64,000 nucleotides of DNA from an uncultured Gammaproteobacteria bacterium (GCA_964348825.1 CAYGDX010000001.1:367463-431462), one strand, 5' to 3'; shown: positions 434-62,012, counted from the first letter of the stretch. Numbers and translations: made by a program. The notes: generated by a model from the sequence alone, not told the origin.

Positions 434-557
434 TAGTATATTACCTATTTTAGTAGCGATTGACAATTGATATGAGTTGGAGTAAGCTTGGAAACGAAAT
501 TACATACAAAATTGTACATTTTTCACAAACAAAAAACAAAAGAAAAGGAAAATTGTT

Positions 558-6055: not shown

Positions 6056-6061
6056 AATTTA

Positions 6062-7468
6062 TTATCCCACACTTCCCTCCATCTCCAGTTGGATTAAACG
6101 ATTTAATTCTACGGCATATTCGAGTGGTAATTCTTTGGCCACGGGCTCTATAAAACCAGAAACAATTAATGACACTGCTTCGTTTTCAGACAGCCCACGA
6201 GAGCGCAAATAAAATAATTGCTCCTCCCCTACTTTTGAGACCACGGCTTCATGTTCAATTTGTGTATCACTCGCCTGTATTTTCATAGTGGGGTAAGTGT
6301 CACTCCGTGATTTATCATCCAAAATTAAAGCATCGCATTTTACTTTTGATTTTACACTAGTTGCTTGCGGTGCGACTTTTAAAAGTCCGCGATAACTAGT
6401 ACGTCCGCCGTGATGTGATACTGATTTCGAAATTATGTTTGAGCTAGTATCGGGTGCTAAGTGAATTACTTTAGCACCCGCATCTTGATATTGATTATGG
6501 CCCGCTACCGCTAGTGATAAAATGTCAGCTCGCGCGCCACGACCAGTCATTACCACGCAAGGATATTTCATAGTTAATTTGGCGCCAAAATTACCATCAA
6601 CCCATTCTACAATCGCGCCTTCTTGCGCGACTGCCCGTTTGGTAACTAAATTATAAACATCAGTGGACCAGTTTTGAATGGTAGTATAACGCACGCGCGA
6701 ATAAGGTTTGGCAATAATTTCCACCACCGCGGCGTGTAAAGAATCCACCGCGTAAATTGGCGCGGTACAACCTTCTACATAGTGCACGAAACTTCCCTCT
6801 TCGGCGATTATTAAAGTGCGTTCAAATTGTCCCATATTCGCGGCATTCAAGCGAAAATAAGCTTGGAGTGGTAAAGTAACTTGTACGCCCGCAGGCACAT
6901 AAACAAAACTACCACCACTCCATACGGCGGTGTTGAGGGCGGCAATTTTATTATCGGCGATTGGTACTACTGTACCAATATATTTTTTTACAAGCTCTGG
7001 ATATTTTTGCAGTGCTTCATCAAGTCCGCAAAAAATAACTCCCAATTTTTGCCACTCAGCTTTTAAATTATGATAAATAGTTTCTGATTCGTATTGCGCG
7101 CCTACACCAGCTAAAAATTCTCGCTCAGCTTGAGGTACGCCCAATTTATTAAAAGTATTTTTGATTTTGGTTGGAACTTCGCTCCATTTTTGAGCTTCTC
7201 TTTCAGTCGGCTTAATATAATATTGTATTTTATCAAAATTTAAAGCTGATAAATCAGGCGCCCAAGTTGGCATTGTCTTGGCTTTAAAAATTTGAAGAGC
7301 ACGTAGGCGATTTTGTAGCATCCAGTGGGGTTCATTTTTTAAATAGGAAATCTCTTGGACTACTGGTTCAGATAATCCAGCGGGGATAGAATAAAAAGGC
7401 ACGACATCATCACGAAAGCCGTATCTAGTTCGGTAATTATTAGTGTTGGTGGAATATTTGTTGGACAT
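6062..7468 (-). CDS. sufB: Fe-S cluster assembly protein SufB
   Basis: 468 aa with the typical SufB C-terminus ...FYLRSRGLSENEA...ELNRLIQLEMEGSVG. Confidence 0.9.
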   Translation of the reverse strand: MSNKYSTNTNNYRTRYGFRDDVVPFYSIPAGLSEPVVQEISYLKNEPHWMLQNRLRALQIFKAKTMPTWAPDLSALNFDKIQYYIKPTEREAQKWSEVPTKIKNTFNKLGVPQAEREFLAGVGAQYESETIYHNLKAEWQKLGVIFCGLDEALQKYPELVKKYIGTVVPIADNKIAALNTAVWSGGSFVYVPAGVQVTLPLQAYFRLNAANMGQFERTLIIAEEGSFVHYVEGCTAPIYAVDSLHAAVVEIIAKPYSRVRYTTIQNWSTDVYNLVTKRAVAQEGAIVEWVDGNFGAKLTMKYPCVVMTGRGARADILSLAVAGHNQYQDAGAKVIHLAPDTSSNIISKSVSHHGGRTSYRGLLKVAPQATSVKSKVKCDALILDDKSRSDTYPTMKIQASDTQIEHEAVVSKVGEEQLFYLRSRGLSENEAVSLIVSGFIEPVAKELPLEYAVELNRLIQLEMEGSVG

Positions 7469-7640
7469 ACAATTTTGAAAATCCGAAATCAGAATTGTCT
7501 AATTACTAATCTCTAAAATCTAATTTCTAAAAATGACAAATGTCTAATAACTAAATTTAGAGATTGGGAATTAGATATTTTTAGATATTAGAAATTAGTC
7601 ATTAGTGATTTTTTGTTTTTGGATTCCCGCCTCCGCGGGA
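7469..7640. repeat. Intergenic palindromic AAATCC / tandem 'aatc/ctaa' repeat (copy 3) inside the suf operon
   Basis: ctaatttctaaaaat...atttttagatattagaaattag inverted arrangement of about 170 nt between sufC and sufB. Confidence 0.55.
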
Positions 7641-7649
7641 ATGACAATT
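7621..7649. repeat. Conserved 29-nt GC hairpin motif GGATTCCCGCCTCCGCGGGAATGACAATT (copy 1)
   Basis: TCCCGC/GCGGGA stem just 3' of the sufC stop. A second copy with compensatory stem changes lies at 22385-22413. Confidence 0.6.
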
Positions 7650-7659
7650 GCTAATACTC

Positions 7660-8418
7660 TTACTCTAAGCTCTTACTCTTACTAAAATACTTATATCCAA
7701 ACTGATCAATTTTCTTCACCAACTCCTTTCCCCCACTCGCTACAATTTGTCCGTCAAGCATAATATGAATAAAATCAGGTTTTAGGTAATCCAAAAGTCG
7801 CTGGTAATGTGTGATTACCAAAAATCCCCTTGTTTTGTGTCGTAGTTCGCTAATACCATTCGCCACTGATTTTAAGGCGTCTAAATCAAGGCCAGAATCA
7901 GTTTCATCTAGTACTGCAAGCCGTGGTTTAAATAATAATAGTTGGAGTACTTCTAATTTTTTTTTCTCACCACCGGAAAAATTGTCGTTAATTGAGCGTT
8001 CTAAAAATTCAGGATTTAAATTTAATTGATTCAAAATTGGTTTTAATTTTTTTTGTAGTTCGGCTGGATTTATTTTTATAGAATGTAAATTATTGTAAGC
8101 CAAATGCAAAAAATTAAATATCGGCACACCGCTCAAGCTTTGTGGATTTTGAAAGGCTAAAAAAATTCCGGCTCGGGCTCTTATTTCTGGCGACATGGCG
8201 TTAATTTTTTTATCATTAAATTTTATATCACCGCGAGTTATTTTATAAGCTGGATGCCCAGCTATAGTTAAAGCTAGAGTAGATTTACCCGAGCCATTGG
8301 GCCCCATTATTACATGAGTTTCATTGGCTTTAACTTTGAGTGATAATCCATTGATAATTTTTTTATTTTCCGCCGCGACTGATAAATTATTTATAGATAG
8401 TAACATTTTAAATAACAT
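7660..8418 (-). CDS. sufC: Fe-S cluster assembly ATPase SufC
   Basis: Walker A GPNGSGKST, ABC signature LSGGEKK and Walker B VLDETDSGLD. It is the first gene of the suf operon. Confidence 0.9.
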   Translation of the reverse strand: MLFKMLLSINNLSVAAENKKIINGLSLKVKANETHVIMGPNGSGKSTLALTIAGHPAYKITRGDIKFNDKKINAMSPEIRARAGIFLAFQNPQSLSGVPIFNFLHLAYNNLHSIKINPAELQKKLKPILNQLNLNPEFLERSINDNFSGGEKKKLEVLQLLLFKPRLAVLDETDSGLDLDALKSVANGISELRHKTRGFLVITHYQRLLDYLKPDFIHIMLDGQIVASGGKELVKKIDQFGYKYFSKSKSLE

Positions 8419-9013
8419 TAAGACGATTTTCTACCTCAGTCCAATTTATTACTTGGAAGTATGCTTCAACATATTCTGGTCGACGATTTTGGTATTTCAA
8501 ATAGTAAGCGTGTTCCCACACATCAAGCCCTAAAATTGGAGTAAGTTTTTGACTAATTGGACAATCTTGGTTGGGAGTATTAACAATAGATAATTTTTTA
8601 GTTTGGTCAGCTGTAAGCCAAGTGAAGCCACTGCCAAATAGGGAAAGTGCCGATTTAGTAAAAGATTCTTTAAATTTTGCAAAGTCGCCAAAATCGCTAG
8701 TAATTTGTTCAGCTAATTTGCCTTGTGGCTCCTTAGCAACACCCGGTTTAATAATTTCCCAAAATAAACAGTGATTAAAATGCCCACCACCGTGATTGCG
8801 CACCGTAGTGCGAATACTTTCGGGTACAATATTTAAATTAGTTAGTAACCATTCGATTGATTTGTCAGCTAGTTCGGGGGCTTGGGTTAGCACTTCATTC
8901 AATTTGTTAACATAAGTTTGATGATGCTTACTATAGTGTATTTCCATTGTTTTAGCATCAAAATATGGCTCCAGCGCGTCGTAGGAGTAAGGCAATTTAG
9001 GTAATTCAAACAT
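8408..9013 (-). CDS. Fe/Mn-family superoxide dismutase
   Basis: LPKLPYSYDALEPYFDAKTMEIHYSKHHQTYV and DVWEHAYY metal-ligand motifs. Confidence 0.9.
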   Translation of the reverse strand: MFELPKLPYSYDALEPYFDAKTMEIHYSKHHQTYVNKLNEVLTQAPELADKSIEWLLTNLNIVPESIRTTVRNHGGGHFNHCLFWEIIKPGVAKEPQGKLAEQITSDFGDFAKFKESFTKSALSLFGSGFTWLTADQTKKLSIVNTPNQDCPISQKLTPILGLDVWEHAYYLKYQNRRPEYVEAYFQVINWTEVENRLNVI

Positions 9014-10540: not shown

Positions 10541-10633
10541 TCAACAACATACCAACATACTCCAGTTTGTTGGTATGTTGTTTTATTATCTAATTATGTC
10601 CGGCCGGACATAATTAGATAATAAAGTTTTTTT
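10541..10633 (+). terminator. Tandem intrinsic terminators downstream of cysS, including a perfect 42-bp palindrome
   Basis: Hairpin AACATAC...GTATGTTG followed by TTTT. Then TTATTATCTAATTATGTCCGG|CCGGACATAATTAGATAATAA at 10583-10624, followed by AGTTTTTTT. Confidence 0.65.
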
Positions 10634-43257: not shown

Positions 43258-44013
43258 TTAGTGTGTCTCTTCCGCTTCTTTTCTTGTGTTAGAGTACGCG
43301 CACCAATCACAATGCTCTCCAGATTCTGGTGTCACATTACTTTCCAAACATTTCTTAATTTCAAACAAAGTTTTTTCTACCCACGAATCATCACCTTTAT
43401 GTTCAATCAAATTAACATCAAAATCAATTCGCTTATCAAAAGCTTGCCTATCCATTTTCCCAGTGCAATATACGAAATAACCAACATCAGATACTTTGAG
43501 CCCATTCTGTCGCAAAAGCCACTGGTATACCTCCATTTGGCGCTTGTAGCCATTCTGCCACTCTTTATCTAGTGCTTTGACTGCTTCATCTTTGGCGGTT
43601 GCCTTATAATCCACGACAATATATTCGCTCTTCCCGTTGATCCACAAATCATCAATCGCACCAGTTACTAAAAGTTCTGTTGGTTCGTGCAGGAATCTCA
43701 CACCACCAAAATTTCTTCGCCATTCATCAAGCTCCTCGTGAGACATTGGTCGCGCATCAATTCCATATTCTTTTTGTAATGGATGCTGTTCATTCTTCAC
43801 CCGATACGAGTCAAATTCTTGTTTCAAAAGAAAATCCACAGCACTGTTGATGGAAAAAGGAAATCCCGGTACCCGTTTTACACCAAGCTTGTTATCTATA
43901 TAAAAACATCGCGGACATTCCTTAAACAAATCAATTTTGGAACGAGAAAGTTTCCAATTCTTGCCTCCATAATTCCACGATTCCATTCGGTTTGGGTTGT
44001 AGTATTCAGACAT
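43258..44013 (-). CDS. Cas4-like PD-(D/E)XK nuclease with an Fe-S Cys cluster (DUF83 / PDDEXK_1-like)
   Basis: N-terminal LSRSKIDLFKECPRCFYI (a Cas4/AddB-type motif), a D...VVDYK catalytic core, and C-terminal Cys residues (KKC...HCDWC). It sits 5 nt downstream of hsdR. Confidence 0.6.
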   Translation of the reverse strand: MSEYYNPNRMESWNYGGKNWKLSRSKIDLFKECPRCFYIDNKLGVKRVPGFPFSINSAVDFLLKQEFDSYRVKNEQHPLQKEYGIDARPMSHEELDEWRRNFGGVRFLHEPTELLVTGAIDDLWINGKSEYIVVDYKATAKDEAVKALDKEWQNGYKRQMEVYQWLLRQNGLKVSDVGYFVYCTGKMDRQAFDKRIDFDVNLIEHKGDDSWVEKTLFEIKKCLESNVTPESGEHCDWCAYSNTRKEAEETH

Positions 44014-44017
44014 AAAA

Positions 44018-47000
44018 TTAAATTGCTACTGGAAAATACTCCCTATAAACTCGCACAGTTTCAAGATAGATAGATTCAATCAACCTTTTAGTCTGCATCT
44101 CCTCAACAATTCCTTTCTGAAGCAAAAGAAGTCTTACGTTCTGACGAATGCGCGCTTTTATTGTTTCGTTGTTAGTCCAGTCAATCGCCAAATCACGTCT
44201 AATACGTTTGGTAAGTTCCTTAACAAATTCTTTTATATCAATTCCTGCATTTTTTAGATCAGGATTTTTTTCAAGAGTATCGTAAAACACAATTTCCTCT
44301 TCAGAAAGTCCTGTATCTTTACTCTCTTGATCTAACTTCTTAATTTCATCCGCAATTTCAAGAAGTTGTTTTATTATTTCAGCCGAACTGATAACATTGT
44401 TTTCATATTTTTCAATAAGACCTTCCAATAGAGTAAGCATCGTTTCGTATCTGGCAGTATTAACACGCATACGAGAGCGAATTTCCTGATCGAGAAGTTT
44501 ACGGACAGAATCAACAGCAAAATTGTGATATTGGGATTTCTTTATTTCGGCAACAAATTTCTCATCGAAAATTGAAATACTTTTCTTTTCTTGACCTTCC
44601 ACATTAAACAAATCAACAATACCTTCAGCTTGAATTGAATCTTGCATTAAACTACGAATAGCACTTTCTGTCTCCTCTGGGAAAATAGCATGAGGTAATA
44701 CTGTCTGCTTCCGTATCGCTTCACGAATTGATTGAAAGAATTGTAAATCATTCACAATTTTCATTGCTTCCTCTCCCGGCATAACAAGAGCATGCAGTTT
44801 CGAAAGTTTCGAAACCATTCCCATATATTTCATTTTTCGCTCATCAGATAAATATCCGCTATTGGTTATTACTTCGTTTATTCCGGCTTGCATAATTCTA
44901 ACAAGCTCAACTCCTTTCTTCTGTTTCCAAGAAGTATAATCAACTTTGCCAAAAAATTCGCCGACCTGTTTGTGTATGATGTGCATTTGTGCGACAACCT
45001 CATTAATAGGAATTAGTGCACCATTTTGAATGTCGGAATCATACCAAGCAAGTGCTTTCTTTAAGTTTTCAGCAATACCAATATAATCAACAATCAAGCC
45101 CCCTGGTTTATCTTTAAAAACTCGGTTTACACGAGCAATTGCCTGCATAAGCCCGTGATTTTTAAGTGGTTTATCAAGATACATCGTGTGCAAACATGGT
45201 ATATCAAAGCCGGTGAGCCACATATCGCACACAATGGCAATTTTCAGAGAATCATTTACTTTTTTAAATCTTTTCTCTAGTTTCTTTACATCTTTCTCTG
45301 ATTGTATAACGGAAGCATATTCATCGCTGCTTGAAATAACCACCGCACATTCCGGAGCACCATCAATTTTTTTGATCGCTTCATACATCAGAACCGCGAT
45401 CCTACGACTCATTGTCACGATCATTGCCTTACCCTCAATTGGTCTATTATTAAAGTGATTTACAATATCTTCTGCAATTTTATTTATGCGACTTGGCGCT
45501 CCAACAACTTCTTCGAGCACAGCCCATTCTTTACGCATTCTCGCGTTATCATCAGAGACAACTTCGCCCAATACTGCATCAAATTTAGAATCAATAAATT
45601 TATCGGCAAGATGAAGTGGCACAAGCCGACCTTCGTAGTAAATTGGTACCGTAGATTTATCTATTACCGATTGGCTGATCTTGTACGAACTAACTACATT
45701 ACCAAAAACCCTAACTGTGTCTTTATCATTTTTCGAAATAGGTGTTCCAGTTACTCCCAAAAAGCTTGCATTAGGTAATGCAAGGCGCACATTACCAGCT
45801 AAATTGCTGTATTGCGTACGATGAGCCTCATCAGCAAGAACAATTATATTGTCTCGTTCGGTTAAGGCATTTTGAGCAACTGGATCTTCTTGGAATTTCT
45901 GAATGGTAGTAAAGATAAGCTCACTACCCAAATGTGACAATCGAGTGCGTAAATCTTGTATACTCGACGCTTTTTTCGCAAGCGTTCCATATCCGGTGCG
46001 ACTGAAAGTTTTAAATAACTGATCATCTAAATCTTCACGGTCTGTTAGAAATACATACGCAGGACTTTTTAACTCTGGAATATTTTTTGTTTTATTCACA
46101 TAAAAAACCATTGAAAGTGATTTTCCCGAACCCTGTGTATGCCAAAATACACCAATTTTATGTTCTTGTTTTCCAAGTACTGAGTTAATTGTACTTTCAA
46201 TAGTTTTGTTTACTCCATAATACTGGTGATAGAGTGCCATCTTTTTTGTGTAGGTAACTGCATCACCATCACTGTCGGCTTCAAAAATTGTGAAGTGTTG
46301 TAGCACATCTAAGAATCGCTCTTTGTTAAAAAGTCCTTTAGTCAATACTTCTAATTCTTCCGCTTCTTTAGAAAAATCATTTTCAACATTGATACCTTTC
46401 CATGTTCCATATCGTTCCCATGAACTAGAGATAGTGCCGTGTCGCGCATTAAACAAATCAGACAGCCCGACAACTTGGTTGAATAAAAATAGTTTCGGAA
46501 TTTCCTTTTTGTAATATTCAATATCTCGATACGCCTCACCAATTGTCGCTTCTGTACGAACGCCACTCTTTAATTCGAAAACACCGAGTGGTAAACCATT
46601 CACAAAGACAACAGCGTCTAGACGGCACACCGAATCAATACCTTGCACAGTGAATTGATTCACAACCAAAAATTCATTAGATAACGGCTCGGCAAAATCT
46701 ATAAGTTTAACCAAATCAGTTTTTTCATCTCCATTTTCAGTCCACGAAATCTTTTTACCATTTGTAATCCATGAATAAACCTCCTTGTTGCCAAGGATAA
46801 GATCAGCATGAGAATAATCCGCAATTTCTTTAACAATAATTTCCGCCTGTTCAGCAGGAAGCGACGGATTTATTCTTCGAATGGCTCCAAGAAGTCTGCC
46901 TCTTAAAACCACACCTCGAAAATCCTCACGCTCGGCGCGAGCCTGTCCAGGGTTTATATCTGGCCCATAGATGTGCTCATAACTCTCGCCCTTGAGCCAG

Positions 47001-47047
47001 TCGGTGAGTGATTGTTCCGTTAAATTGTTTTCGTTGATGGGGTTCAT
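44018..47047 (-). CDS. hsdR: Type I restriction enzyme R subunit (HsdR), SF2 helicase-nuclease
   Basis: 1009 aa with an N-terminal nuclease region and helicase motifs I (GSGKS), II (DEAH) and VI. It is adjacent to hsdS and hsdM. Confidence 0.9.
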   Translation of the reverse strand: MNPINENNLTEQSLTDWLKGESYEHIYGPDINPGQARAEREDFRGVVLRGRLLGAIRRINPSLPAEQAEIIVKEIADYSHADLILGNKEVYSWITNGKKISWTENGDEKTDLVKLIDFAEPLSNEFLVVNQFTVQGIDSVCRLDAVVFVNGLPLGVFELKSGVRTEATIGEAYRDIEYYKKEIPKLFLFNQVVGLSDLFNARHGTISSSWERYGTWKGINVENDFSKEAEELEVLTKGLFNKERFLDVLQHFTIFEADSDGDAVTYTKKMALYHQYYGVNKTIESTINSVLGKQEHKIGVFWHTQGSGKSLSMVFYVNKTKNIPELKSPAYVFLTDREDLDDQLFKTFSRTGYGTLAKKASSIQDLRTRLSHLGSELIFTTIQKFQEDPVAQNALTERDNIIVLADEAHRTQYSNLAGNVRLALPNASFLGVTGTPISKNDKDTVRVFGNVVSSYKISQSVIDKSTVPIYYEGRLVPLHLADKFIDSKFDAVLGEVVSDDNARMRKEWAVLEEVVGAPSRINKIAEDIVNHFNNRPIEGKAMIVTMSRRIAVLMYEAIKKIDGAPECAVVISSSDEYASVIQSEKDVKKLEKRFKKVNDSLKIAIVCDMWLTGFDIPCLHTMYLDKPLKNHGLMQAIARVNRVFKDKPGGLIVDYIGIAENLKKALAWYDSDIQNGALIPINEVVAQMHIIHKQVGEFFGKVDYTSWKQKKGVELVRIMQAGINEVITNSGYLSDERKMKYMGMVSKLSKLHALVMPGEEAMKIVNDLQFFQSIREAIRKQTVLPHAIFPEETESAIRSLMQDSIQAEGIVDLFNVEGQEKKSISIFDEKFVAEIKKSQYHNFAVDSVRKLLDQEIRSRMRVNTARYETMLTLLEGLIEKYENNVISSAEIIKQLLEIADEIKKLDQESKDTGLSEEEIVFYDTLEKNPDLKNAGIDIKEFVKELTKRIRRDLAIDWTNNETIKARIRQNVRLLLLQKGIVEEMQTKRLIESIYLETVRVYREYFPVAI

Positions 47048-47051
47048 AATA

Positions 47052-47909
47052 CTATTTTACCTTTGGAACAACGCCAGTTATGTCAGAGACCATATCCTTT
47101 ATATCTGACACAATGGGCATTATTTTTTTATCAAACTTATCGCTCCCTGTCTCATTATCTCTAATGTTTTTCATCGGTGATGAATATAGTTGTCCTATTG
47201 ATTCCAAGATAAAATCAAGTTTTTTCTTATACTCATCTCCCGGTTGATCTGCAAACAAGTTCTCAATTATTTCTTTGTAAGCTTCAAGTGAACGAGCAAT
47301 GGAAGCTTTAAATTCATATTCTTCAATTAATCTTTTTGAGCGAGAATACTCACGATTTACAAAAAATTCAAAAAAGATTATTGGAGAAGTCAAAGCAAGC
47401 TTTACTAAGAAACTTATCTCAAAGATTGTATCTCCCTTAGAAACCTGCCATACAACTACTCCGAAAACAGCTAAAAGCAGTGCGGTACTTGTACCTACGA
47501 GCCACTTAAACCATTTCTCATTGTCTTTCTTTAAATCATCTTTTACTTTATCAAAAGAGTTTGATAATTTTTCGTTTGAAATAATGCCAAGTTGTTGCAA
47601 TGAGAGGGTATGTATCTCATCCGTTTTGGTTTTAAGTGCCTCAACTGTACCCTTAATTTCTTCGGTTAAATTTTGTTGCTCAGTAGTGCTTTCTTTAAGA
47701 GTCTCAACTTCTTGTACTAGATTATCTAATTCCAGTTTTTTTGCAGGAATAGCATCTATGTTTACTTTCTGTGCTTGTAATTGTGCAATCAACGTATCCA
47801 TAACTTGCTTTTCTGATGAAACATTTTGCACCAAAACATTCAAATCTCCCAGTGCCTTAAGATTTTGATCTATTTCTGTTAATTTTTGTGCTAATTCTTT
47901 TTTATTCAT
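47052..47909 (-). CDS. Uncharacterised protein embedded between hsdS and hsdR: an N-terminal coiled coil of about 130 aa, two TM helices and a cytoplasmic C-terminal domain
   Basis: Heptad-rich N-terminus, then the hydrophobic segments WFKWLVGTSTALLLAVFGVVVWQV and IFEISFLVKLALTSPIIFFEFFV. No known domain was recognised. Confidence 0.45.
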   Translation of the reverse strand: MNKKELAQKLTEIDQNLKALGDLNVLVQNVSSEKQVMDTLIAQLQAQKVNIDAIPAKKLELDNLVQEVETLKESTTEQQNLTEEIKGTVEALKTKTDEIHTLSLQQLGIISNEKLSNSFDKVKDDLKKDNEKWFKWLVGTSTALLLAVFGVVVWQVSKGDTIFEISFLVKLALTSPIIFFEFFVNREYSRSKRLIEEYEFKASIARSLEAYKEIIENLFADQPGDEYKKKLDFILESIGQLYSSPMKNIRDNETGSDKFDKKIMPIVSDIKDMVSDITGVVPKVK

Positions 47910-47913
47910 AAAT

Positions 47914-49005
47914 TTAAATTAATTTTTCTAATAATTGATCTCTCGACTCTTTAAGTTTTACATTTTCTTTTTCAAGCACAACCATTTCACTTATAAAACT
48001 TTTAATTTTTGAAACAAAAGCCTTCGCGAGTTCAACGGGGGGTATGAAAAATTCAATACTCGATAACTCGCTCCAATGACGCTTGTACTCTCTCTGGTCA
48101 ATCAAATCTTTTGTCAAAAAATAAGTAAATATTGGGTTGTAACCATCTTTCTCGCCAAGAGGAATTGTATTAGGACCTAACGAGAATGGTTCACATATAA
48201 TTTGGGTTCTGCAAGTATGATCACCGAAAATTAGCACCGGATTATATATATTTGCCTTAAAAGAAGGTTCTTCTTCACTAAAACCAATTATCCCTTTTGA
48301 AGATTGGTCGTAAACGGGTATAGAACCTTTGTTCAACAATGAATCTTCTTTGTAGGTTTTTTGTGTAGATAATCGTTCAACAACATCTTCGATTTTCCCC
48401 ATATTCCACCCCTCCGGAATTTCTCCCATTTCACTTTCTATCATTTTCTTTTTTTCATATCCCGGAAAACGCAAGTTTACAAACCATTCATTAAAAATTG
48501 TTTGTGCTGTAGCTTCAAGATTTTTGATTATCTTATTATTATTTTCAATTTTTGAATCATAAGCACTCAATATTTCGGTAATTTTCTTTTGTGTTAAAAA
48601 TTCTGGGGTCTCAACTTGTAAGTTATATATGGTATCTCTACTTAATCCCGGAACAGCAGAATCGCCACCATAACGAGGTAAATTAATTCTCTTTAAGAGA
48701 TAGAAAATATATTTTAAATCAAAACCTTCTTTGGGTTCATCAATAAAAAATGCAGTGTCGATAGGAAAAGAAGGTTGTTCAGAAAAATAGAGAGATCCTA
48801 CATTTCCTTTTCGTCCAATGATTATTGCGGGCGTATTAACTTTCGCTTCATTGTGATAACCCACAACCCCACTTGATGCATAAACTGGGACAGATCCCTT
48901 AATTCTTTTTGGTTCGGGCAATCCAAAACCATATTTAATATCAGCCAAGTCGCTGACAAGATATGGTTTTGATTCTATATTTATTTGTTCCAGTAATTTG
49001 CTCAT
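47914..49005 (-). CDS. hsdS: Type I restriction-modification specificity subunit (HsdS)
   Basis: Target-recognition domain followed by the conserved coiled-coil repeat (ILSAYDSKIENNNKIIKNLEATAQTIFNEWF). At 363 aa it is somewhat short. Confidence 0.8.
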   Translation of the reverse strand: MSKLLEQINIESKPYLVSDLADIKYGFGLPEPKRIKGSVPVYASSGVVGYHNEAKVNTPAIIIGRKGNVGSLYFSEQPSFPIDTAFFIDEPKEGFDLKYIFYLLKRINLPRYGGDSAVPGLSRDTIYNLQVETPEFLTQKKITEILSAYDSKIENNNKIIKNLEATAQTIFNEWFVNLRFPGYEKKKMIESEMGEIPEGWNMGKIEDVVERLSTQKTYKEDSLLNKGSIPVYDQSSKGIIGFSEEEPSFKANIYNPVLIFGDHTCRTQIICEPFSLGPNTIPLGEKDGYNPIFTYFLTKDLIDQREYKRHWSELSSIEFFIPPVELAKAFVSKIKSFISEMVVLEKENVKLKESRDQLLEKLI

Positions 49006-49011
49006 ATATAA

Positions 49012-49776
49012 TTATTTTTTACTAACTAAATCAAGAATATCCTTGGTTGGTTTTATTTCCAGAAATTGGTACAGACTTGGTTTAATAACTTCCAATATAG
49101 AAGCAAGGAATCCAGAAGTTTGCCCGTTGTTATTTTTTGCAGTTTTTAACCATCGAGCTTTTGCAACATCAAATGATTCAATTTTATCTTTTTTTAATTT
49201 CGCGATCGCAACAGGTTTATATTCTTGATTAATGATAGAAGCCATAGATGGATTATTTAACATATCAATAACACGCTGTGCATTTTCTGCTTTCATTAAA
49301 TCTCCATCTATAAACTGAAAGTTTCTGTGTACATGCTGTATTCTATGCTCAATGACACCATTAAATACCTCTTTTGTTTTTTCTACGCCTGCTTGAAAAA
49401 AGTCTTCAATGTCATCCTTATTTATTGCAATTTTCTTTATATCTTTTTTTAGTCCAAAAAACAGATTTTCTATTTTATTCTTTAAGGTATCCATATCTTG
49501 TAGATATGCATGAATATGATGATTAAGTTCTTCTGTTCTATCTATTTTTTCTGAATTAGAATAGAACTCTTGAAAATATACTTCATATCGTAAAATCTTC
49601 TGCCATGCATAATTTACACTAATTAATAAATTGTTATACTTCTCGAGATTCTTCTTGTTCAATCTCGAAACATCTAACAAATTTTTCAATTCATTTTTCA
49701 AAATATCTGGATAAAGACAAATTCCAAAGTCTCCCAATATTTCATCCATTATGTGATTTTGGTTTTGGGTAAGCAT
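49012..49776 (-). CDS. Uncharacterised soluble protein embedded between hsdM and hsdS
   Basis: 254 aa with no recognisable domain. It contains an RIQHVH segment (Rx4H-like). It is tightly packed, with 6-7 nt gaps on either side. Confidence 0.45.
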   Translation of the reverse strand: MLTQNQNHIMDEILGDFGICLYPDILKNELKNLLDVSRLNKKNLEKYNNLLISVNYAWQKILRYEVYFQEFYSNSEKIDRTEELNHHIHAYLQDMDTLKNKIENLFFGLKKDIKKIAINKDDIEDFFQAGVEKTKEVFNGVIEHRIQHVHRNFQFIDGDLMKAENAQRVIDMLNNPSMASIINQEYKPVAIAKLKKDKIESFDVAKARWLKTAKNNNGQTSGFLASILEVIKPSLYQFLEIKPTKDILDLVSKK

Positions 49777-49781
49777 ATAAT

Positions 49782-51569
49782 TTAAAATCCTAATTCCTTA
49801 AGATTTTTCTCAATATCTTTTTCTAATTCACGACCCTTTGTAAATGCTTCCCGGAGTTCTCCAGAGAGTTTTTGCATTTTTTCTTCAAAAGAAATTCCAT
49901 CATCTTCAATATCTGCAAGTCCGACATATCTTCCCGGGGTAAGAGTATATCCGTTCTTTTTTATTTCTTCTAGGTTTGCTGATTTACAAAAACCAGAAAC
50001 ATCTTCGTATTTTAGCGCTCCTTTTTCTTCACGCCATGAACGAACAGTACCCGCAATCTTTTCAAGATTATCTTTATTGAAAACAACCTGTTTTCGAGAA
50101 ATTTGTTCAAAAATATCTCGGGCATCAATAAAAAGAGTTTCACCTTTGCGATTACGGAAACGATCGCCACTTTTATTTTTTGCCAAAAACCACAAAGAAA
50201 CCGGGAGAGATACATTATAAAAGAGTTTTGATGGACAAGAAATAATCACGTCCACAAGGTCTGCGTCGATGAGCTTCTGACGAAGTTCACCCTCTTTTCC
50301 AGACACAGCAAGCGCTCCATTTGGCATAACGAATCCCGCATGTCCGTTTGGTGAAAGATGATGTGTAAAGTGTTGCACCCACATAAAATTTGCACTGCCA
50401 GAAGGCGGTACACCTAAAATAATGCGTGGGTCATTGTCAGAAAGTTTTTGAGGTTCCCATTCTGCATTAAACGGAGGATTGGCGATAACAAAATCTGCTT
50501 GAAGATTAGGAAATTTGTCTTGATAGTATGTATTGCCCAATTCTATTTTTCCTGAAAGTCCCCGAATAGCAAGATTCATTTTACAAAGACGAAGTGTTGT
50601 TTGATTGCTTTCTTGTCCACTGATAGAAAGCTTGGATGGATCCATTTTATGATCATGTAAATATTCTCCCATAGACACAAACATTCCACCACTACCGCAG
50701 GCAGGATCAAGAATGCGAGCGTTTTCATATGGCTCAAGAATTTCAACAAGAAGTTTTACAATAGAACGAGGGGTAAAAAATTCTCCTCCGCGCTTTCCTT
50801 CGGCAGAAGCAAATTGTCCCAAAAAATATTCATAGATGCGACCGAGAATGTCTTTTTCTCGGTCAAAATCGTGATCAAAAGAAATTTTAGAAAAAATATT
50901 TACCAATTCACCAAGAACAGTGTGGTCCAAATTTGTTTTTGTATATACACGAGGAAGAACATTTTCAAGTTGTACAGGATTATCTTTCTCAATCAATTCC
51001 ATTGCGTTGTCCAAAACTTTTCCCAAATCAGGACTCATGGTCTTTGTTTGTAAATATTCCCAACGAGATTTTTCCGGAACGTAGAATACACCCTCGGAAG
51101 TATAAAAATCTTTTGTTTCAAGAATTGCTTTTCGTGCTTCATCGGTCGGAACATAAAAATCTTCATTCTTTTTATCGCGAGTCATTCCCGTAAGAATTTC
51201 TCTGCGTTTATAGAATGAGTCAGAAATGTATTTCAAGAAAAGTAAGCCTAAAACTATGTTTTTATATTCCGAAACGTCTATATTTCCACGTAATTTATCT
51301 GCCGCCGCCCAAAGTTCTTTTTCAAAACCAAGGTCATGGTGATTAACCCCAGTCTTTTTGGAAATTGCTTTTTCTTGAGCTTTTTTTTGCTCTTCTTTTA
51401 TACGATCTTTTATTTGCTGAGATAAACTACCTATTTCATATAAAAAACCGGTACCTACTTCCTTAACCTTTAAATTGGCTTCGCCTTTTAATTTCTTTTG
51501 AATTGCCTGCCTCGTAACTCCCAAAATACGAGCCAAGTCTGCAGTTGAAATGTAGTCATTATTATTCAT
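49782..51569 (-). CDS. hsdM: Type I restriction-modification methyltransferase subunit (HsdM) with an N-terminal HTH extension
   Basis: N-terminal HTH region YISTADLARILGVTRQAIQKKL, then the HsdM N-domain and a gamma-class N6-adenine MTase domain (FFTPRSIV; NPPF motif VIANPPFN). The likely start is the ATG at 51567-51569; the track's TTG-start extension to 51587 would lie inside the promoter. Confidence 0.85.
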   Translation of the reverse strand: MNNNDYISTADLARILGVTRQAIQKKLKGEANLKVKEVGTGFLYEIGSLSQQIKDRIKEEQKKAQEKAISKKTGVNHHDLGFEKELWAAADKLRGNIDVSEYKNIVLGLLFLKYISDSFYKRREILTGMTRDKKNEDFYVPTDEARKAILETKDFYTSEGVFYVPEKSRWEYLQTKTMSPDLGKVLDNAMELIEKDNPVQLENVLPRVYTKTNLDHTVLGELVNIFSKISFDHDFDREKDILGRIYEYFLGQFASAEGKRGGEFFTPRSIVKLLVEILEPYENARILDPACGSGGMFVSMGEYLHDHKMDPSKLSISGQESNQTTLRLCKMNLAIRGLSGKIELGNTYYQDKFPNLQADFVIANPPFNAEWEPQKLSDNDPRIILGVPPSGSANFMWVQHFTHHLSPNGHAGFVMPNGALAVSGKEGELRQKLIDADLVDVIISCPSKLFYNVSLPVSLWFLAKNKSGDRFRNRKGETLFIDARDIFEQISRKQVVFNKDNLEKIAGTVRSWREEKGALKYEDVSGFCKSANLEEIKKNGYTLTPGRYVGLADIEDDGISFEEKMQKLSGELREAFTKGRELEKDIEKNLKELGF

Positions 51570-51577
51570 ACCAAGTA

Positions 51578-51623
51578 AGTGTAGCAAAACACTAATAGGT
51601 TGTCAAGTGACAACCTATTAGTG
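51578..51623 (-). promoter_or_regulatory. Promoter of the hsdM operon, embedded in a perfect 16-2-16 palindrome (candidate autoregulatory operator)
   Basis: On the minus strand, TTGACA (51601-51606), a 17-nt spacer, then TACACT (51578-51583), with the ATG 8 nt downstream. The palindrome CACTAATAGGTTGTCA-AG-TGACAACCTATTAGTG spans 51590-51623. Confidence 0.5.
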
Positions 51624-51879
51624 AATCAATCTGCCACAAAAATACTTAAAAAACAGTCTCAAAAAGTAGTTCTAAAAAATAGCCAATTTATTAATTACAA
51701 TGCTAGCAAATTTTACAAAAATTGTCTAAAAAATAACACTTCCTAATAATCAGCCAAAACACATACTTTTATCTCAATTTTCTACTAAATCATGCACGCC
51801 ACTGGACTTGGTATAACTAACGACAATTTAAACACTATTACAACCACACAATTTTAATTCAGCGTAACCCTATATTACA

Positions 51880-51912
51880 AAAACTTCCCCGCTATCTTGG
51901 GGAAGTTTTTTA
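51880..51912. terminator. Bidirectional intrinsic terminator
   Basis: AACTTCCCC/GGGGAAGTT stem flanked by an A-run and a T-run. It separates the HTH-ATPase gene unit from the RM operon. Confidence 0.65.
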
Positions 51913-52028
51913 CCTGTTGCCACAGATATATAATAGAAAAACTTGCATTCTTTTGCAAGAGTGTAACATAATGCATAGATGTCCACCCCGCTACACTTAT
52001 AAATCTAAACAAATAATTCTACGCATCG

Positions 52029-52187
52029 CTGGGAGACATGGATTCTGCGCCTTTTCGGCGCATCCGCCGTGAAGGCGGAGAACTACTTTATATTTAGATC
52101 CAGAATCTGTTGTCCCCGCCTTTTCGGCGCGCCTGCCTCCTCGGCAGGTAAATCGCAAATGAGGCGACTACCATTAAACGACCCCCT
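52029..52187 (-). repeat. Degenerate tRNA-Gln-like composite element (copy A)
   Basis: In minus-strand orientation it reads AGGGGGTCGTTTAATGGTAG, then a 52-nt insert, then GGACAACAGATTCTGGATCT, then about 50 nt, then AGAATCCATGTCTCCCAG. The tRNA-Gln D-arm, anticodon arm (CUG) and 3' end are interrupted by a structured module with GAAA-tetraloop hairpins. The acceptor stem is not complementary, so it is probably non-functional. Confidence 0.55.
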
Positions 52188-52211
52188 TAGTTTCGTAATT
52201 CAAAGTTCACA

Positions 52212-53261
52212 TTACTTTTTAATCTTTGCCTCATTTTTTGACCTCTCGACCATAAACCTTACTCCTTCTGACATATTAGATTCTTTAATTTCTATATCCG
52301 GATGAGCATTTTGAAAAACACGATAAATTTCATCAGCAAATGCTTGACCAACTACCGGCACACCATCAAAATCAAGTAGTATTATTTTAAATTTATCTAA
52401 ACCAAATAGAATTCGTCGTGCTTGTGAACGTGAAATATTAACACCGCCCATTGTAAAAAGTTTAACTCTAATTTCAGTTTTATCAAAACCATAATCACTG
52501 TCAACTGAAATATTTGTATACTTCTTGAACACATCAGTAAGGTGTAGCCCTGAATTAACATCGATTTCAAAAATAACCTTAGTACCTCTTTTTACTATTG
52601 GAATATTTTTTATATTTGGACCTTTTGCCGTAATGATAAGTTGATAACGGAAACTATTCAATATAAATGTATCTGCTGATTTAGAGGTAAAAAAAATCCC
52701 CTCTCCAGAATGAGATTTTGACATTGTTGTTGTTTTACCTTTGAGTAAATCTTGAATCGCCTCAATTTCAGAATGAAGCTTTTTTTTCTTCATAATATTA
52801 CGAAATACTCCCACACCCGAATCCTCTACTATAAAAGAAAGTTTGCTATCGCGAATCGCAACTTCAATATTTATTACTTTTGACTTCGAATGTTCAATCG
52901 CATTATTAAATATTTCAGAAAATGCAAAGGTAAAAATACTTTGAATGTTTTCTGGTAATTTTAGAAGCTGTGAAAATCTCTGCTCTACTTCCATAAGAAC
53001 TTTGTGTTCTTCTAATTTTATATTTTTATATTTTTTACGAAAAATAGATGGAAATACCTTGGGATTTTTTTCTGCATATTCCGTAGAAATGTAAAAGGCA
53101 GAGCGTGTTCCACCAAATTTTATTATTTCTTTTTCAAAAATAAGCTCTGCTATAAGTTGGTTTACATATTGGCGAGACACACCAAACTGCACAGAAAGCT
53201 CTTTAGTAGTCACTTTCCCTTGTTTATTCGCTATTTCTAGTATTTTTATTTTATTTATCAT
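52212..53261 (-). CDS. Three-domain protein: N-terminal winged HTH, GHKL/HATPase_c ATPase (anti-sigma-factor-kinase-like) and a C-terminal STAS-like DUF4325 domain
   Basis: HTH KVTTKELSVQFGVSRQYVNQLIAEL. GHKL N-box EIFNNAIEHS, G1 box VEDSGVGV and G2 box SGEGIFF. C-terminal LLDFDGVPVVGQAFADEIYRVF is typical of DUF4325. The likely start is the ATG at 53259-53261; the track's TTG-start ORF extends to 53294. Confidence 0.6.
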   Translation of the reverse strand: MINKIKILEIANKQGKVTTKELSVQFGVSRQYVNQLIAELIFEKEIIKFGGTRSAFYISTEYAEKNPKVFPSIFRKKYKNIKLEEHKVLMEVEQRFSQLLKLPENIQSIFTFAFSEIFNNAIEHSKSKVINIEVAIRDSKLSFIVEDSGVGVFRNIMKKKKLHSEIEAIQDLLKGKTTTMSKSHSGEGIFFTSKSADTFILNSFRYQLIITAKGPNIKNIPIVKRGTKVIFEIDVNSGLHLTDVFKKYTNISVDSDYGFDKTEIRVKLFTMGGVNISRSQARRILFGLDKFKIILLDFDGVPVVGQAFADEIYRVFQNAHPDIEIKESNMSEGVRFMVERSKNEAKIKK

Positions 53262-53271
53262 AAGCAAGTAT

Positions 53272-53312
53272 ATTGTAAACCAATCTATAATCAATTGTCA
53301 AGTAATTGACAA
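53272..53312 (-). promoter_or_regulatory. Promoter with a palindromic -35 region for the HTH-GHKL-STAS gene
   Basis: On the minus strand, TTGTCAATTACTTGACA includes a TTGACA -35 (53296-53301). A 17-nt spacer follows, then TACAAT (53272-53277), with the ATG 10 nt downstream. It shares the TTGTCA/TGACAA half-sites with the hsdM promoter. Confidence 0.5.
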
Positions 53313-53371
53313 CTAGCCCAGTAATGTTTTATATGAAACAAATCCGCCAAAATTGTTAATCATCGTCCCAA

Positions 53372-53491
53372 CTGGGAGACATGGATCCCTGTAGTATATC
53401 ACTTCGGTGATAACTACAGGGCGCGGTCGGCGCCTCTTCGGCGGGCCTGCCTCACCGGTAGGTAAATCGCTAATTAGGCGACTACTCATTC
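53372..53491 (-). repeat. tRNA-Gln-derived structured repeat (copy B), immediately 3' of the genuine tRNA-Gln
   Basis: It carries the same roughly 55-nt three-hairpin module as copy A (GTAGTCGCCTAATTAGCGATTTACCTACCGGTGAGGCAGGCCCGCCGAAGAGGCG). After that comes a perfect 13-bp hairpin with a CGAA loop, and then a copy of the tRNA 3' end, GATCCATGTCTCCCAG. Confidence 0.55.
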
Positions 53492-53500
53492 TCTATATAA

Positions 53501-53571
53501 CTGGGGGACATGGATTCGAACCATGATAAACAGATCCAGAATCTGTTGTCCTACCATTAGACGATCCCCCA
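53501..53571 (-). tRNA. tRNA-Gln (anticodon CUG)
   Basis: Hand-folded cloverleaf. Acceptor stem UGGGGGA/UCCCCCA with U1:A72 and discriminator G73, both Gln identity elements. D-arm GUCU/GGAC. Anticodon arm ACAGA-UUCUGGA-UCUGU. A 4-nt variable loop. T-arm CAUGG-UUCGAAU-CCAUG. No CCA is encoded. Confidence 0.85.
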
Positions 53572-53589
53572 ACGTATTTAAATTCTAAA

Positions 53590-53710
53590 CACTAAATCCG
53601 AAATCCTAAATAAATTTTAAAATCCTAAATTCAAATGTTTAAAACTTTTTTTTGGATTTTAGTCATTGGGATTTATTTGGGATTTAGAAATTAGGATTTA
53701 GGATTTTTAA
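53590..53710. repeat. Intergenic palindromic AAATCC-family repeat (copy 4) between tRNA-Gln and dnaX
   Basis: aaatccgaaatcctaaataaattttaaaatcctaaatt ... tttggattttagtcattgggatttatttgggatttagaaattaggatttaggattttt. Confidence 0.6.
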
Positions 53711-53780
53711 ACGATTGATATGTCTTATTAGTTGGGTTTGCTCTCTCAAATTTCGAGATTACAACCCAATCTACCTACCT

Positions 53781-55316
53781 TTACCCATCCACCACTTGCC
53801 CACCAAAAGTATTAAGCACACTGGAAAATAAATCAGGCGTGGTTGGTGGCGGGCTAACAATTGATTTTATTTTGAGAGTTGTGCCCATAATTTCCGCCAC
53901 CGCTTTTTCCACAGCTAAATTAATTTTGCTATCTGCTAAACGTTCTTTGTGTAATTTATATTGAAATGAAATAGTAAGTGCGCGCCCCACAAACTCTTTG
54001 GGCTCAGCCATACTTAAAATAAATGACAAAGAGTGATTAACTGGTTTTAATTTAGCAATCACTTGGGGCCACAACTGTTTAATTGATTCCAAAGTTAAAT
54101 CAGTTGGCGTAGTTGCTTCGGTTGATGAATTCTGAGGCACCTCCGCACTTGAATCACTTTGACTAACAACTGAAGCTTGACCACTGGCTGACGCTTTATT
54201 ATTCACCTCTTTTATTTCTGTGCCATTGGTACAAATAGTAATAATAGCAAGCTCTAAATTGAGCTGGGGAATTTCACTTTGCTTCCAACTATTTTCGGCC
54301 TGCGACCAAGTTTGAATAATAAATTGTAAACGCGGCATAGTTAAACCTTCGGCTGATTTGGCCACCGCTATTTGCTCATCTTTCGCCAATAAATTTATTT
54401 CTTCGCTTAATTTTTGTCCACCTAATTTATAAAGCATTATCAAACGCAAAAAATTTAATACTTGACTATAAAAAACTGATAATTCCCCACCCTCATTCAA
54501 ATAATCATTAAGAATTGTGATACCTTGAGCCGCGTCACGTTTGATTAAAGCGCTAATTATATTTTGCACTACTTCAGTATCAACTTTTGGTAAAACTAAA
54601 TTGGCGCGGGCGGAATCTATTTTACTGCCACCTAATCCTAAAACTTTACCGAGTAAACTTTCAGCATCGCGCACCGAACCTTGGGCGAGGTATGCCACGC
54701 GGCGCAAAACTTCATCATCTACCTCAATTTTTTCTAAACCAATTAAATCATTTAAACGGATAAGTAAAACATCAACCGCCACACGATGAAAATCAAAGCG
54801 CTGACAACGGGAAATAATAGTGGCTGGCACTTTGTGAACATCAGTGGTCGCTAGAATGAATACCACGTGCGCTGGCGGCTCTTCTAAGGTCTTTAAGAGC
54901 GCGTTAAAGGCCTCGGTGGTAAGCATATGCACTTCATCCACAATAATCACCTTATAGCGTGAACCGGCTGTGCCTAGTGGGATATTTTCACGAATAGCGC
55001 GAATATCATCAATCCGCCGGTTCGAGGCGGCGTCGAGCTCTAAAACGTCAAGTGATAAACCGCGAGTTATGGCGACACAAGAATCACACTCACCGCACGG
55101 CTCGCCTGAATTCGCCTTCTTTTTTTCGCAGTTTAAGGCCTTGGCGAGTAATCGCGCTACAGTGGTCTTGCCTACTCCGCGCATGCCGCAAAATAAATAA
55201 GCGTGGGCTAATTGCCCACTTAAAATTTGTTGAAGAAGTGTGGTTTTAATATGTTCTTGCCCCACCAAATCACGGAAGAATTGCGGGCGATATTTACGGT
55301 ATAAAGTAGTAGACAT
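53781..55316 (-). CDS. dnaX: DNA polymerase III subunit gamma/tau
   Basis: AAA+ Walker A GMRGVGKTT, a Zn module CGECDSC, box VII/sensor motifs and a C-terminal tau-like extension. Confidence 0.9.
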   Translation of the reverse strand: MSTTLYRKYRPQFFRDLVGQEHIKTTLLQQILSGQLAHAYLFCGMRGVGKTTVARLLAKALNCEKKKANSGEPCGECDSCVAITRGLSLDVLELDAASNRRIDDIRAIRENIPLGTAGSRYKVIIVDEVHMLTTEAFNALLKTLEEPPAHVVFILATTDVHKVPATIISRCQRFDFHRVAVDVLLIRLNDLIGLEKIEVDDEVLRRVAYLAQGSVRDAESLLGKVLGLGGSKIDSARANLVLPKVDTEVVQNIISALIKRDAAQGITILNDYLNEGGELSVFYSQVLNFLRLIMLYKLGGQKLSEEINLLAKDEQIAVAKSAEGLTMPRLQFIIQTWSQAENSWKQSEIPQLNLELAIITICTNGTEIKEVNNKASASGQASVVSQSDSSAEVPQNSSTEATTPTDLTLESIKQLWPQVIAKLKPVNHSLSFILSMAEPKEFVGRALTISFQYKLHKERLADSKINLAVEKAVAEIMGTTLKIKSIVSPPPTTPDLFSSVLNTFGGQVVDG

Positions 55317-61637: not shown

Positions 61638-61677
61638 AATGATAATAACCTTTTCGCGCGAAAAGGTTATTATCATT
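61638..61677. repeat. Perfect 40-bp palindrome with core ATAACCTTTTCGCGCGAAAAGGTTAT (copy 1), between convergent kef and arsR
   Basis: AATGATAATAACCTTTTCGCGCGAAAAGGTTATTATCATT. It is likely a bidirectional terminator or protein-binding site. Confidence 0.6.
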
Positions 61678-61687
61678 AATAAGTAAA

Positions 61688-61960
61688 TTAAGAAATAAGT
61701 GGTTTTAATAATTGATTGTGACAAGAGTTTAGTTCGTCTGACAAATTGTAATAAACTACATTAGCTCGCCGGTTTTTTATCAAAAAACCAATGTTGTACA
61801 AATTAGTCAAATGCTTGTGTGTAGATTTAATTGACAACTTGATTCCCAGCGCAATATCAGTTACACAAGTTGCGCCGTGTTTATTTAACAATAAAATTAT
61901 TTCTAAACGTCTACGATTACCCAACGCTTTATAATAACGCTCTAATTCATAATGCTTCAT
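61688..61960 (-). CDS. ArsR/SmtB-family winged-HTH transcriptional regulator
   Basis: GNRRRLEIILLL...ATCVTDIALGIKLSIKSTHKHLTNLYNIGFL...VYYNL is a typical ArsR HTH. There are Cys residues in the alpha3 region (TCVTD). Confidence 0.75.
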   Translation of the reverse strand: MKHYELERYYKALGNRRRLEIILLLNKHGATCVTDIALGIKLSIKSTHKHLTNLYNIGFLIKNRRANVVYYNLSDELNSCHNQLLKPLIS

Positions 61961-61970
61961 AAACTATTTA

Positions 61971-62012
61971 TATCATCCATAACCTTTTCGCGCGAAAAGG
62001 TTATGGATGATA
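61971..62012. promoter_or_regulatory. Perfect 42-bp palindrome sharing the 26-bp core ATAACCTTTTCGCGCGAAAAGGTTAT (copy 2), 11 nt upstream of the arsR start. Candidate operator and terminator
   Basis: TATCATCCATAACCTTTTCGCGCGAAAAGGTTATGGATGATA. Confidence 0.5.

Follow-up and report, generated by a model that had tools for sequence, protein, structure and literature searches.

A 64-kb window of DNA (64,000 nucleotides, nt; GCA_964348825.1 CAYGDX010000001.1:367463-431462, from an uncultured Gammaproteobacteria bacterium) carries a type I restriction-modification (RM) gene array headed by hsdM, which encodes an N6-adenine methylase subunit with an N-terminal helix-turn-helix (HTH) extension and is preceded by a promoter set within a perfect palindrome. 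Upstream of hsdM on the same strand lies a gene for an HTH-GHKL-DUF4325 protein, whose promoter also contains an inverted repeat. A sequence-only reading of the window had proposed that HsdM regulates its own operon through the palindrome, in the manner of the C proteins of RM systems, and that the neighbouring gene might share this circuit. Here we weigh both proposals against profile searches, a structural model and the comparison of related loci. All of the genes discussed lie on the minus strand, and the positions of their features are collected in Table 1.

The HsdM extension and the promoter of its operon

HsdM scores as a type I methylase subunit (PADLOC MTase_I, 3.6e-155), with residues 83-226 corresponding to HsdM_N (Pfam, 1.8e-24) and residues 238-556 to N6_Mtase (Pfam, 5.1e-103). 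Together with the presence of hsdS and hsdR in the same tightly packed array, this identifies the system as type I RM. The succession hsdM-orf254-hsdS-orf285-hsdR-PD-(D/E)XK looks like a single six-gene operon, and the only recognizable promoter of this array is the one in front of hsdM. The two additional open reading frames (ORFs), ORF254 and ORF285, received no assignment from Pfam, PADLOC or NCBIfam; a homologue of ORF254 that is 46% identical lies downstream of hsdM in another locus (L104), and ORF285 appears to be coiled-coil or membrane-associated.

The N-terminal extension of HsdM is recognized as an HTH at the level of its family. About 25 database homologues span the extension, and among the 19 of them that were aligned HTH_11 matches 15 (best 3e-9) and HTH_17 matches 11 (best 7.6e-10); several extension homologues carry precomputed PF12728 (HTH_17) annotations. 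An AlphaFold2 model built from the family alignment has a mean confidence (pLDDT) of 79.5 and places the long helix at residues 51-73. When this model was compared with the PDB using Foldseek, every match was a winged-HTH DNA binder: ArsR/SmtB repressors, the RdfS and Pukovnik excisionases and the DNA-binding domain of the Mu transposase. The XRE profile, HTH_3, reaches only E = 0.009 on the extension, with HTH_11 and HTH_17 scoring best. We therefore regard the extension as a probable winged HTH of the HTH_17/HTH_11 type, similar to those of excisionases.

This domain is not confined to HsdM. A search of 1.84 billion representative proteins with the extension profile returned 656 matches, which include stand-alone proteins of about 85 residues and full-length HsdM as well as tandem-domain proteins (P0241-P0262) with three to eight copies of the HsdM-type HTH, for example four copies in about 240 residues. 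Some loci from other phyla have the HTH in a small gene of its own directly ahead of hsdM; this gene is HTH_17-like in L008 (Planctomycetota) and XRE-like in L012, L041 and L019 (Sphaerochaeta, Proteiniclasticum and Dysgonomonas loci). The HTH-HsdM fusion can thus be seen as one variant of a widespread arrangement that pairs an HTH gene with hsdM. Where the sources of homologues of the HsdM extension and of the GHKL protein are named, they point to Patescibacteria (the Candidate Phyla Radiation, CPR).

The perfect 16-2-16 palindrome described in the sequence-only reading is present in front of hsdM and bears the -35 element of its promoter. Its arms (51590-51605 and 51608-51623) are 100% complementary over 16 nt each, with 2 nt between them, and it reads CACTAATAGGTTGTCA-CT-TGACAACCTATTAGTG on the minus strand. 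The -35 and -10 elements are separated by a spacer of 17 nt, and the short distance from the -10 to the ATG predicts a leaderless hsdM messenger RNA. The promoter of the GHKL gene has a comparable layout, with its -10 ending 10 nt from the start codon, so that the earlier description of both promoters as nearly abutting their ATG holds.

Both the hexamer pair and this layout are distinctive within the window. The pattern TTGTCA-N0-10-TGACAA occurs at two sites in 64 kb, the hsdM and GHKL promoters, against an expectation of 0.10; two sites were reached in none of 100 shuffled sequences. Promoter-like sites, defined as TTGAC[AT]-N16-18-TAnnnT, number nine in the window including these two promoters. 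As the other seven have an ORF start 63-97 nt downstream or none at all, the near-leaderless layout is peculiar to hsdM and the GHKL gene. We also considered whether the hsdM palindrome could be one copy of a genome-wide repeat, and rejected this: its 16-mer arm has no further copy within the window, and its position is kept in relatives.

Table 1. Features of the window discussed in the text (nt from its first nucleotide)
Feature	Position	Strand	Description and basis
hsdM, 595 residues	49782..51569	minus	HTH + HsdM_N + N6_Mtase; Pfam, PADLOC; start codon set by alignment with relatives
HsdM N-terminal extension, 80 residues	51330..51569	minus	winged HTH (strand-helix-helix-strand-strand), then long helix; Pfam on family, AlphaFold2
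Rest of apparent operon after hsdM	43258..49776	minus	five further genes, gaps of 4-6 nt or overlaps
ORF254	49012-49776	minus	between hsdM and hsdS
hsdS	47914-49005	minus	Methylase_S, 4e-17
ORF285	47052-47909	minus	between hsdS and hsdR
hsdR	44018-47047	minus	HSDR_N, SWI2_SNF2, T1RH-like_C; REase_I, 1.5e-239
PD-(D/E)XK/Cas4-like gene	43258-44013	minus	last gene of apparent operon
Perfect 16-2-16 palindrome, proposed operator	51590..51623	minus	upstream of hsdM; inverted-repeat search
Putative operator core, GGTTGTCACTTGACAACC, 18 bp	51598..51615	minus	family consensus GGTTGnCAnTTGACAACC; information-content profile of upstream regions
hsdM -35, TTGACA	51601..51606	minus	within proximal palindrome arm
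hsdM -10, TACACT, TG-extended	51578..51583	minus	8 nt from its end to ATG (51569)
HTH-GHKL(HATPase_c)-DUF4325(STAS-like) gene, 349 residues	52212..53261	minus	Pfam; about 640 nt upstream of hsdM, same strand
GHKL promoter module, TTG[T/A]CAAT-nnC-TTGACAAT[T/C]GAwTAyAGAwtrGTTTACAAT-N10-ATG	53262..53312	minus	7-4-7 palindrome is its distal part
GHKL palindrome, TTGTCAA-TTAC-TTGACAA	53295-53312	minus	7-4-7
GHKL -35, TTGACA	53301-53296	minus	18-nt spacer to -10
GHKL -10, TACAAT	53277-53272	minus	10 nt to ATG (53261)
AT-rich region, about 400 bp	51624-52029		between tRNA-like element and proposed hsdM operator; no ORF of at least 60 residues
First tRNA-Gln-like element	52030-52200	minus	one side of GHKL gene
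Second tRNA-Gln-like element	53375-53495	minus	other side of GHKL gene
tRNA-Gln	53500-53572	minus	genuine tRNA

Conservation of the palindrome core with the fused HTH

If the palindrome is an operator for the HsdM extension, it should be found where the extension is found. An alignment of N-terminal extensions of all subtypes was too diverse for scanning, so we scanned metagenomes with an alignment of a five-sequence sub-family, which gave 80 loci, about 50 of them with an HTH-fused hsdM. A scan with an alignment of the extension plus HsdM_N was keyed on HsdM_N and produced 79 loci (L002-L080) in which the match stopped short of the HTH extension; these served as the negative control. For footprinting, we aligned on their -35 elements 46 distinct regions upstream of HTH-hsdM genes, whose extensions are 41-72% identical to that of the window.

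Information is concentrated in the 18-bp core, a T-rich patch and the -10, with uninformative flanks. Within the core, the left arm GGTTG matches the -35 in its degree of conservation, which promoter function does not explain. The window and 1.17 Mb of fetched DNA together contain 60 copies of the derived motif GTTG-N8-CAAC. Of these, 44 (one in the window and 43 in related loci) precede an HTH-hsdM start by 0-120 nt; none of the 79 control loci has the motif near the hsdM start. The core of the palindrome thus travels with the HTH-fused hsdM and does not behave as a generic repeat, and the dyad is best described as a conserved cis-element that, in this comparison, co-occurs only with the fused HTH. 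Symmetry extending at least 3 bp past the core is seen in 24% of loci as compared with 8.7% in a flank-swap control, a modest enrichment, and the palindrome of the window is the longest instance. The layout of the promoter is shared as well. The core overlies the -35 in 42 non-redundant metagenomic relatives; a rule-based assignment placed a -10 in 32 of these 42 regions, and in 26 of those 32 its end lies 6-8 nt from the ATG, which predicts leaderless transcripts throughout the HTH-hsdM family.

The upstream motif also varies with the HTH. Extensions whose recognition helix reads [ST]RQA[IV]QK, found in the window and the approximately 50 metagenome loci, are accompanied by GGTTGnCAnTTGACAACC. 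Those with TRAAINK (L001 and L172) have GGTTGACATATGTATAC at the -35 (also written CATATGTATAC) and its inverse, GTATACATATG, at the start codon, and those with [ST]R[IV]A[IV]H (L170, L171, L181 and, more loosely, L180) have an imperfect 9-2-9 dyad, AACTTTACA-yr-TGTTAAGTT (AACTTTACAyrTGTTAAG). On these small samples, the pairing of motif and subtype follows the pattern expected of a repressor and its own operator. One homologue, P0001, is about 76% identical to the window over a 232-residue N-terminal query, with an extension of a different subtype that is 42% identical and an HsdM_N that is visibly much closer. This difference in identity suggests that the HTH may be exchanged as a module.

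The mechanism that we find best supported, and that we regard as likely, is that HTH-HsdM autorepresses its own six-gene operon. The winged HTH of HsdM would bind the dyad GGTTGnCA-n-TTGACAACC, which includes the -35 of the operon promoter. With rising amounts of HsdM, each half-site would be filled by one HTH domain, the pair being supplied either by an HsdM dimer or by both HsdM subunits of M2S1, the assembled methylase, and RNA polymerase would be kept off the promoter. The outcome would be negative feedback on the entire operon, setting the level of its six-gene transcript, which is predicted to be leaderless. DNA binding, repression and stoichiometry are the components of this scheme that we infer from sequence comparison.

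Several observations weigh against this mechanism. When the extension of the window is searched alone, both HTH profiles are sub-threshold (HTH_11 at 24.0 bits against a cut-off of 25; HTH_17 at E = 0.098), and the Foldseek E-values are non-significant (best 0.029). Conservation of the right arm of the dyad cannot be told apart from that of the -35, which leaves the left arm GGTTG as the independent evidence; the inner bases of that arm are variable (TCA, ACA or CTA), so that the best-conserved form of the dyad is GGTTG-N8-CAACC. Covariation of motif and HTH is represented by just two to four loci for each of the other subtypes. Lastly, one sub-group (L123-L127 and L132) has a second -35, TTGACT, downstream of the dyad, and the mode of action there could differ from simple occlusion.

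We weighed autorepression against other explanations of the palindrome. It might act as a hairpin, as an intrinsic terminator or insulator against upstream read-through or as a cruciform, rather than as a protein operator. A terminator scan does flag it (15 pairs and a 4-nt loop, followed by TTTTGCTA), and the enrichment of symmetry beyond the core is in keeping with such a role. However, the core is conserved in sequence and not merely in pairing, and many relatives have mismatched inner pairs (GGTTGACAC..., GGTTGCTAG...), so that the 5-bp arms left to them would not make a useful hairpin. The T-run is weak, and canonical terminators already stand about 300 nt upstream (51942-51959 and a GGGGAAG hairpin around 51880-51910). 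A hairpin would also leave the link between motif and HTH subtype unexplained, and we consider it improbable.

Less probable again is that the dyad is bound by another host factor, or is a methylation-sensitive element read by the system's own HsdS, with the HTH of HsdM then serving a purpose such as DNA tethering. GTTG-N8-CAAC does resemble a bipartite type I target, and control by promoter methylation is known in some type II systems (PMC12707154). Against this, the HsdS proteins of loci that share the motif are 26-57% identical to that of the window, often with no detectable similarity; HsdS has diverged while the motif has remained constant, which argues that the dyad is not the RM system's own recognition site. 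Moreover, the motif follows the HTH subtype and is missing from the hsdM loci whose match stopped short of the HTH extension. Autorepression by the fused HTH accordingly keeps its place as our preferred reading, and we turn to the claim that it extends to the neighbouring gene.

The HTH-GHKL-DUF4325 gene and its surroundings

The N-terminus of the GHKL protein, taken in isolation, is a winged HTH by Pfam (HTH_24, 5.5e-5; HTH_11, 7.8e-5). DUF4325 lies above its cut-off (1.9e-11) and HATPase_c_2 is borderline (27.0 bits against a cut-off of 27.4), with the N-box (E..NA..H) and DxGxG motifs of GHKL ATPases visible in the sequence. PADLOC and NCBIfam made no assignment for this protein, and a literature search returned almost nothing on DUF4325, which is mentioned in just three papers. 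Homologues number more than 6900; the best 120 are 66-97% identical, nearly all of about 350 residues (338-374), and belong to Patescibacteria where a source is named, most being without a name.

The inverted repeat reported for the promoter of this gene, TTGTCA-ATTAC-TTGACA with the -35 inside it, was likewise found where it had been described. It forms the distal part of a promoter module of about 50 bp that is kept, together with the spacer between -35 and -10, in all seven genomic contexts recovered. The upstream hexamer is TTGTCA in three of these (the lineage of the window, L163 and L178) and TTGACA in the other four (L165, L166, L173 and L177). TTGnCAA is itself near-palindromic, and its one central base switches a direct into an inverted repeat or back; with TTGACA, and hence a direct repeat by a single base, in four of seven contexts, the GHKL palindrome is not a conserved feature. 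The recognition helix SRQY, in turn, is invariant in the family, and this and the conserved spacer suggest that the GHKL protein may regulate its own promoter. The family looks like an autoregulated core regulator whose single chain unites an RsbW-like kinase with a STAS-like domain. A 12-mer from the -35-proximal part of the GHKL promoter, TTGACAATTGAT, occurs once more in the window (460-471, plus strand), where a promoter-like site about 70 nt ahead of a 157-residue ORF has it as its -35 region, and this copy may be a second target of whatever regulates the GHKL promoter, or chance.

The HTHs of the two proteins had been called related, which holds at the level of broad class. An hhalign comparison of the N-termini aligns a 36-column HTH core only, with 95% probability, but BLASTP finds no similarity between them; both appear to belong to the same broad winged-HTH class, with a recognition helix that starts G[IV][ST]RQ. 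The half-sites had been called the same, and here too the agreement is partial: the hexamers are common to both promoters, but they are 2 nt apart at hsdM and 6 nt apart at the GHKL gene, and the GGTTG...CAACC arms are missing from the GHKL promoter. The likeness of the two promoters seems to come mainly from a consensus TTGACA(A) -35 and, roughly one turn of the helix further upstream, another TTGnCA-like element.

Binding of the GHKL palindrome by the HsdM HTH as well, or by one regulator common to both genes, is very unlikely, the least probable of the explanations considered here: for all that the hexamer pair is confined to these two near-leaderless promoters in 64 kb, that the HTH cores align at profile level with recognition helices that both begin [ST]RQ, and that in five of seven contexts the GHKL -35 has in front of it GTTGnCA, which is similar to the left arm of the putative hsdM operator, the N-termini show no significant BLASTP similarity, the GHKL promoter lacks a CAACC arm and a conserved dyad, no GHKL homologue lies within about 3 kb of the approximately 50 related HTH-hsdM loci, and the GHKL promoter is kept in seven unrelated contexts. 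One of these contexts, L161, encodes a GHKL protein that is 97% identical, followed downstream by a small XRE-HTH gene and an EcoRI-like methylase (7299-8639) instead of a type I operon. The different downstream genes in L161 indicate that the slot downstream of the GHKL gene is a variable site for defence genes and that its adjacency to hsdM is incidental. The proposal that the GHKL gene belongs to the hsdM circuit is thus set aside, and the gene is best regarded as independent, widely conserved and outside the RM circuit, beside an apparent hotspot for variable defence genes that adjoins tRNA-Gln.

This region contains further features of note. The genuine tRNA-Gln is accompanied by two tRNA-Gln-like elements, one on either side of the GHKL gene. 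GC-rich tetraloop hairpins interrupt both elements, which have a common module, GUAGUCGCCUnAUUnGCGAUUUACC...GAGGCAGGC.CGCCGAAnAGGCG, and both end in GAAUCCAUGUCUCCCAG, as does the 3' end of the tRNA. One of them, element a, folds (-67 kcal/mol, z = -3.7) with a closing stem that resembles an acceptor stem. Neither element was called by ARAGORN or Rfam, the latter yielding only tRNA-Gln on 51500-53800. In the close relative L161, one such element follows tRNA-Gln (5960-6140), and searches of the fetched loci and of IMG/VR gave no exact match to the GC-rich module. These elements could be attachment (att)-type duplications at the boundaries of an island or an undescribed tRNA-derived RNA. The AT-rich region between the nearer element and the palindrome holds two terminator-like hairpins, at 51942-51959 and, as AAAAACTTCCCC...GGGGAAGTTTTTT, around 51878-51910, and may be the junction of an inserted RM island.

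Perfect palindromes also occur elsewhere in the window. Two of 22-23 nt, at 61638-61677 and 61971-62012, have a common core, AACCTTTTCGCGCGAAAAGGTT, and between them is a 90-residue ORF (61688-61960, minus strand); another, of 22 nt, lies at 10582-10625.

Comparison of HTH-HsdM with known regulators of RM systems

The comparison with C proteins made in the sequence-only reading was apt in part. An autoregulatory circuit built into the methylase is in keeping with the conserved dyad, which lies over the -35 and is tied to the fused HTH, and classical C proteins are, as HTH-HsdM would be, dedicated HTH regulators of RM genes with a palindromic promoter box. They are, however, stand-alone XRE (HTH_3) proteins of about 80 residues that act on a C-box and both activate and repress the C/R genes. 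HTH-HsdM has none of these features: its HTH is of the HTH_17/HTH_11 type, GGTTGnCAnTTGACAACC is not a C-box and there is no separate C gene.

A closer analogue is provided by the HTH-fused type II cytosine-5 (C5) methylases SsoII, Ecl18kI and EcoRII, which repress their own promoters (PMC2760811, PMC3978073, PMC12707154). M.SsoII, M.Ecl18kI, M.EcoRII and M.MspI each have about 70 residues of HTH at the N-terminus, joined by a linker to the methylase, and repress their own gene, with the operator in its promoter region; HsdM is similarly fused to an HTH and, by comparative evidence only, has a putative specific operator in its own promoter. The differences are nonetheless substantial. The SsoII-class enzymes are type II cytosine-5 methylases, whereas HsdM is the N6-adenine methylase subunit of a type I system. 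Their operator is located between the M and R promoters, with repression of M favouring R, whereas here one promoter apparently drives M, S and R. The HTH of HsdM, moreover, is HTH_17/HTH_11-like, and its messenger RNA is predicted to be leaderless. HTH-HsdM would therefore be analogous in its working to the SsoII class but is not a member of it, since methylase class, RM type, operon layout and HTH family all differ.

In the literature that we searched, control of type I RM is presented mainly as post-translational, through ClpXP degradation of HsdR and the order of assembly (PMC12707154), and dedicated transcriptional regulators of these systems have been described only recently, as separate proteins. 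RptR, a small repressor of Gammaproteobacteria whose gene precedes type I RM and defence islands, represses a type I RM operon through sites that overlap the core promoter (PMC12255303). It is a separate, all-helical protein that acts on three direct TAGCTA repeats over the -10, in contrast to an HTH within HsdM and a single dyad over the -35; TAGCTA repeats are not present in the hsdM promoter, and there is no separate gene for such a regulator. HsdC proteins are C-protein homologues of Mollicutes that control hsd (type I) operons, and regulator-methylase fusions, noted alongside them, involve type II methylases (PMC5282649). HsdC is of the XRE type and binds direct repeats, (GTGTTA-N5)2, unlike HTH-HsdM in both HTH family and motif. 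Our literature search found no description of an HTH-fused HsdM with an operator.

A broader reading, which we offer tentatively and hold to be possible rather than probable, is that the HTH and operator at the 5' end of hsdM form an exchangeable specificity cassette, with at least three subtypes that each have their own dyad. Type I systems of Patescibacteria would then fall into 'immunity groups' in which M2S1 itself represses the operon on a leaderless transcript. If true, this would add a transcriptional layer beside the ClpXP-type post-translational control known from E. coli.

The two promoters of this window illustrate that neighbouring promoters with common TTGTCA/TGACAA hexamers need not form one regulon. 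An HsdM with its own repressor domain and a conserved operator would broaden the principle of the 'regulatory methylase', until now one of type II C5 enzymes, to include the N6 enzymes of type I systems. Such an HsdM would also give a testable pair of operator and repressor in Patescibacteria, which are uncultured and have small genomes and few known regulators.

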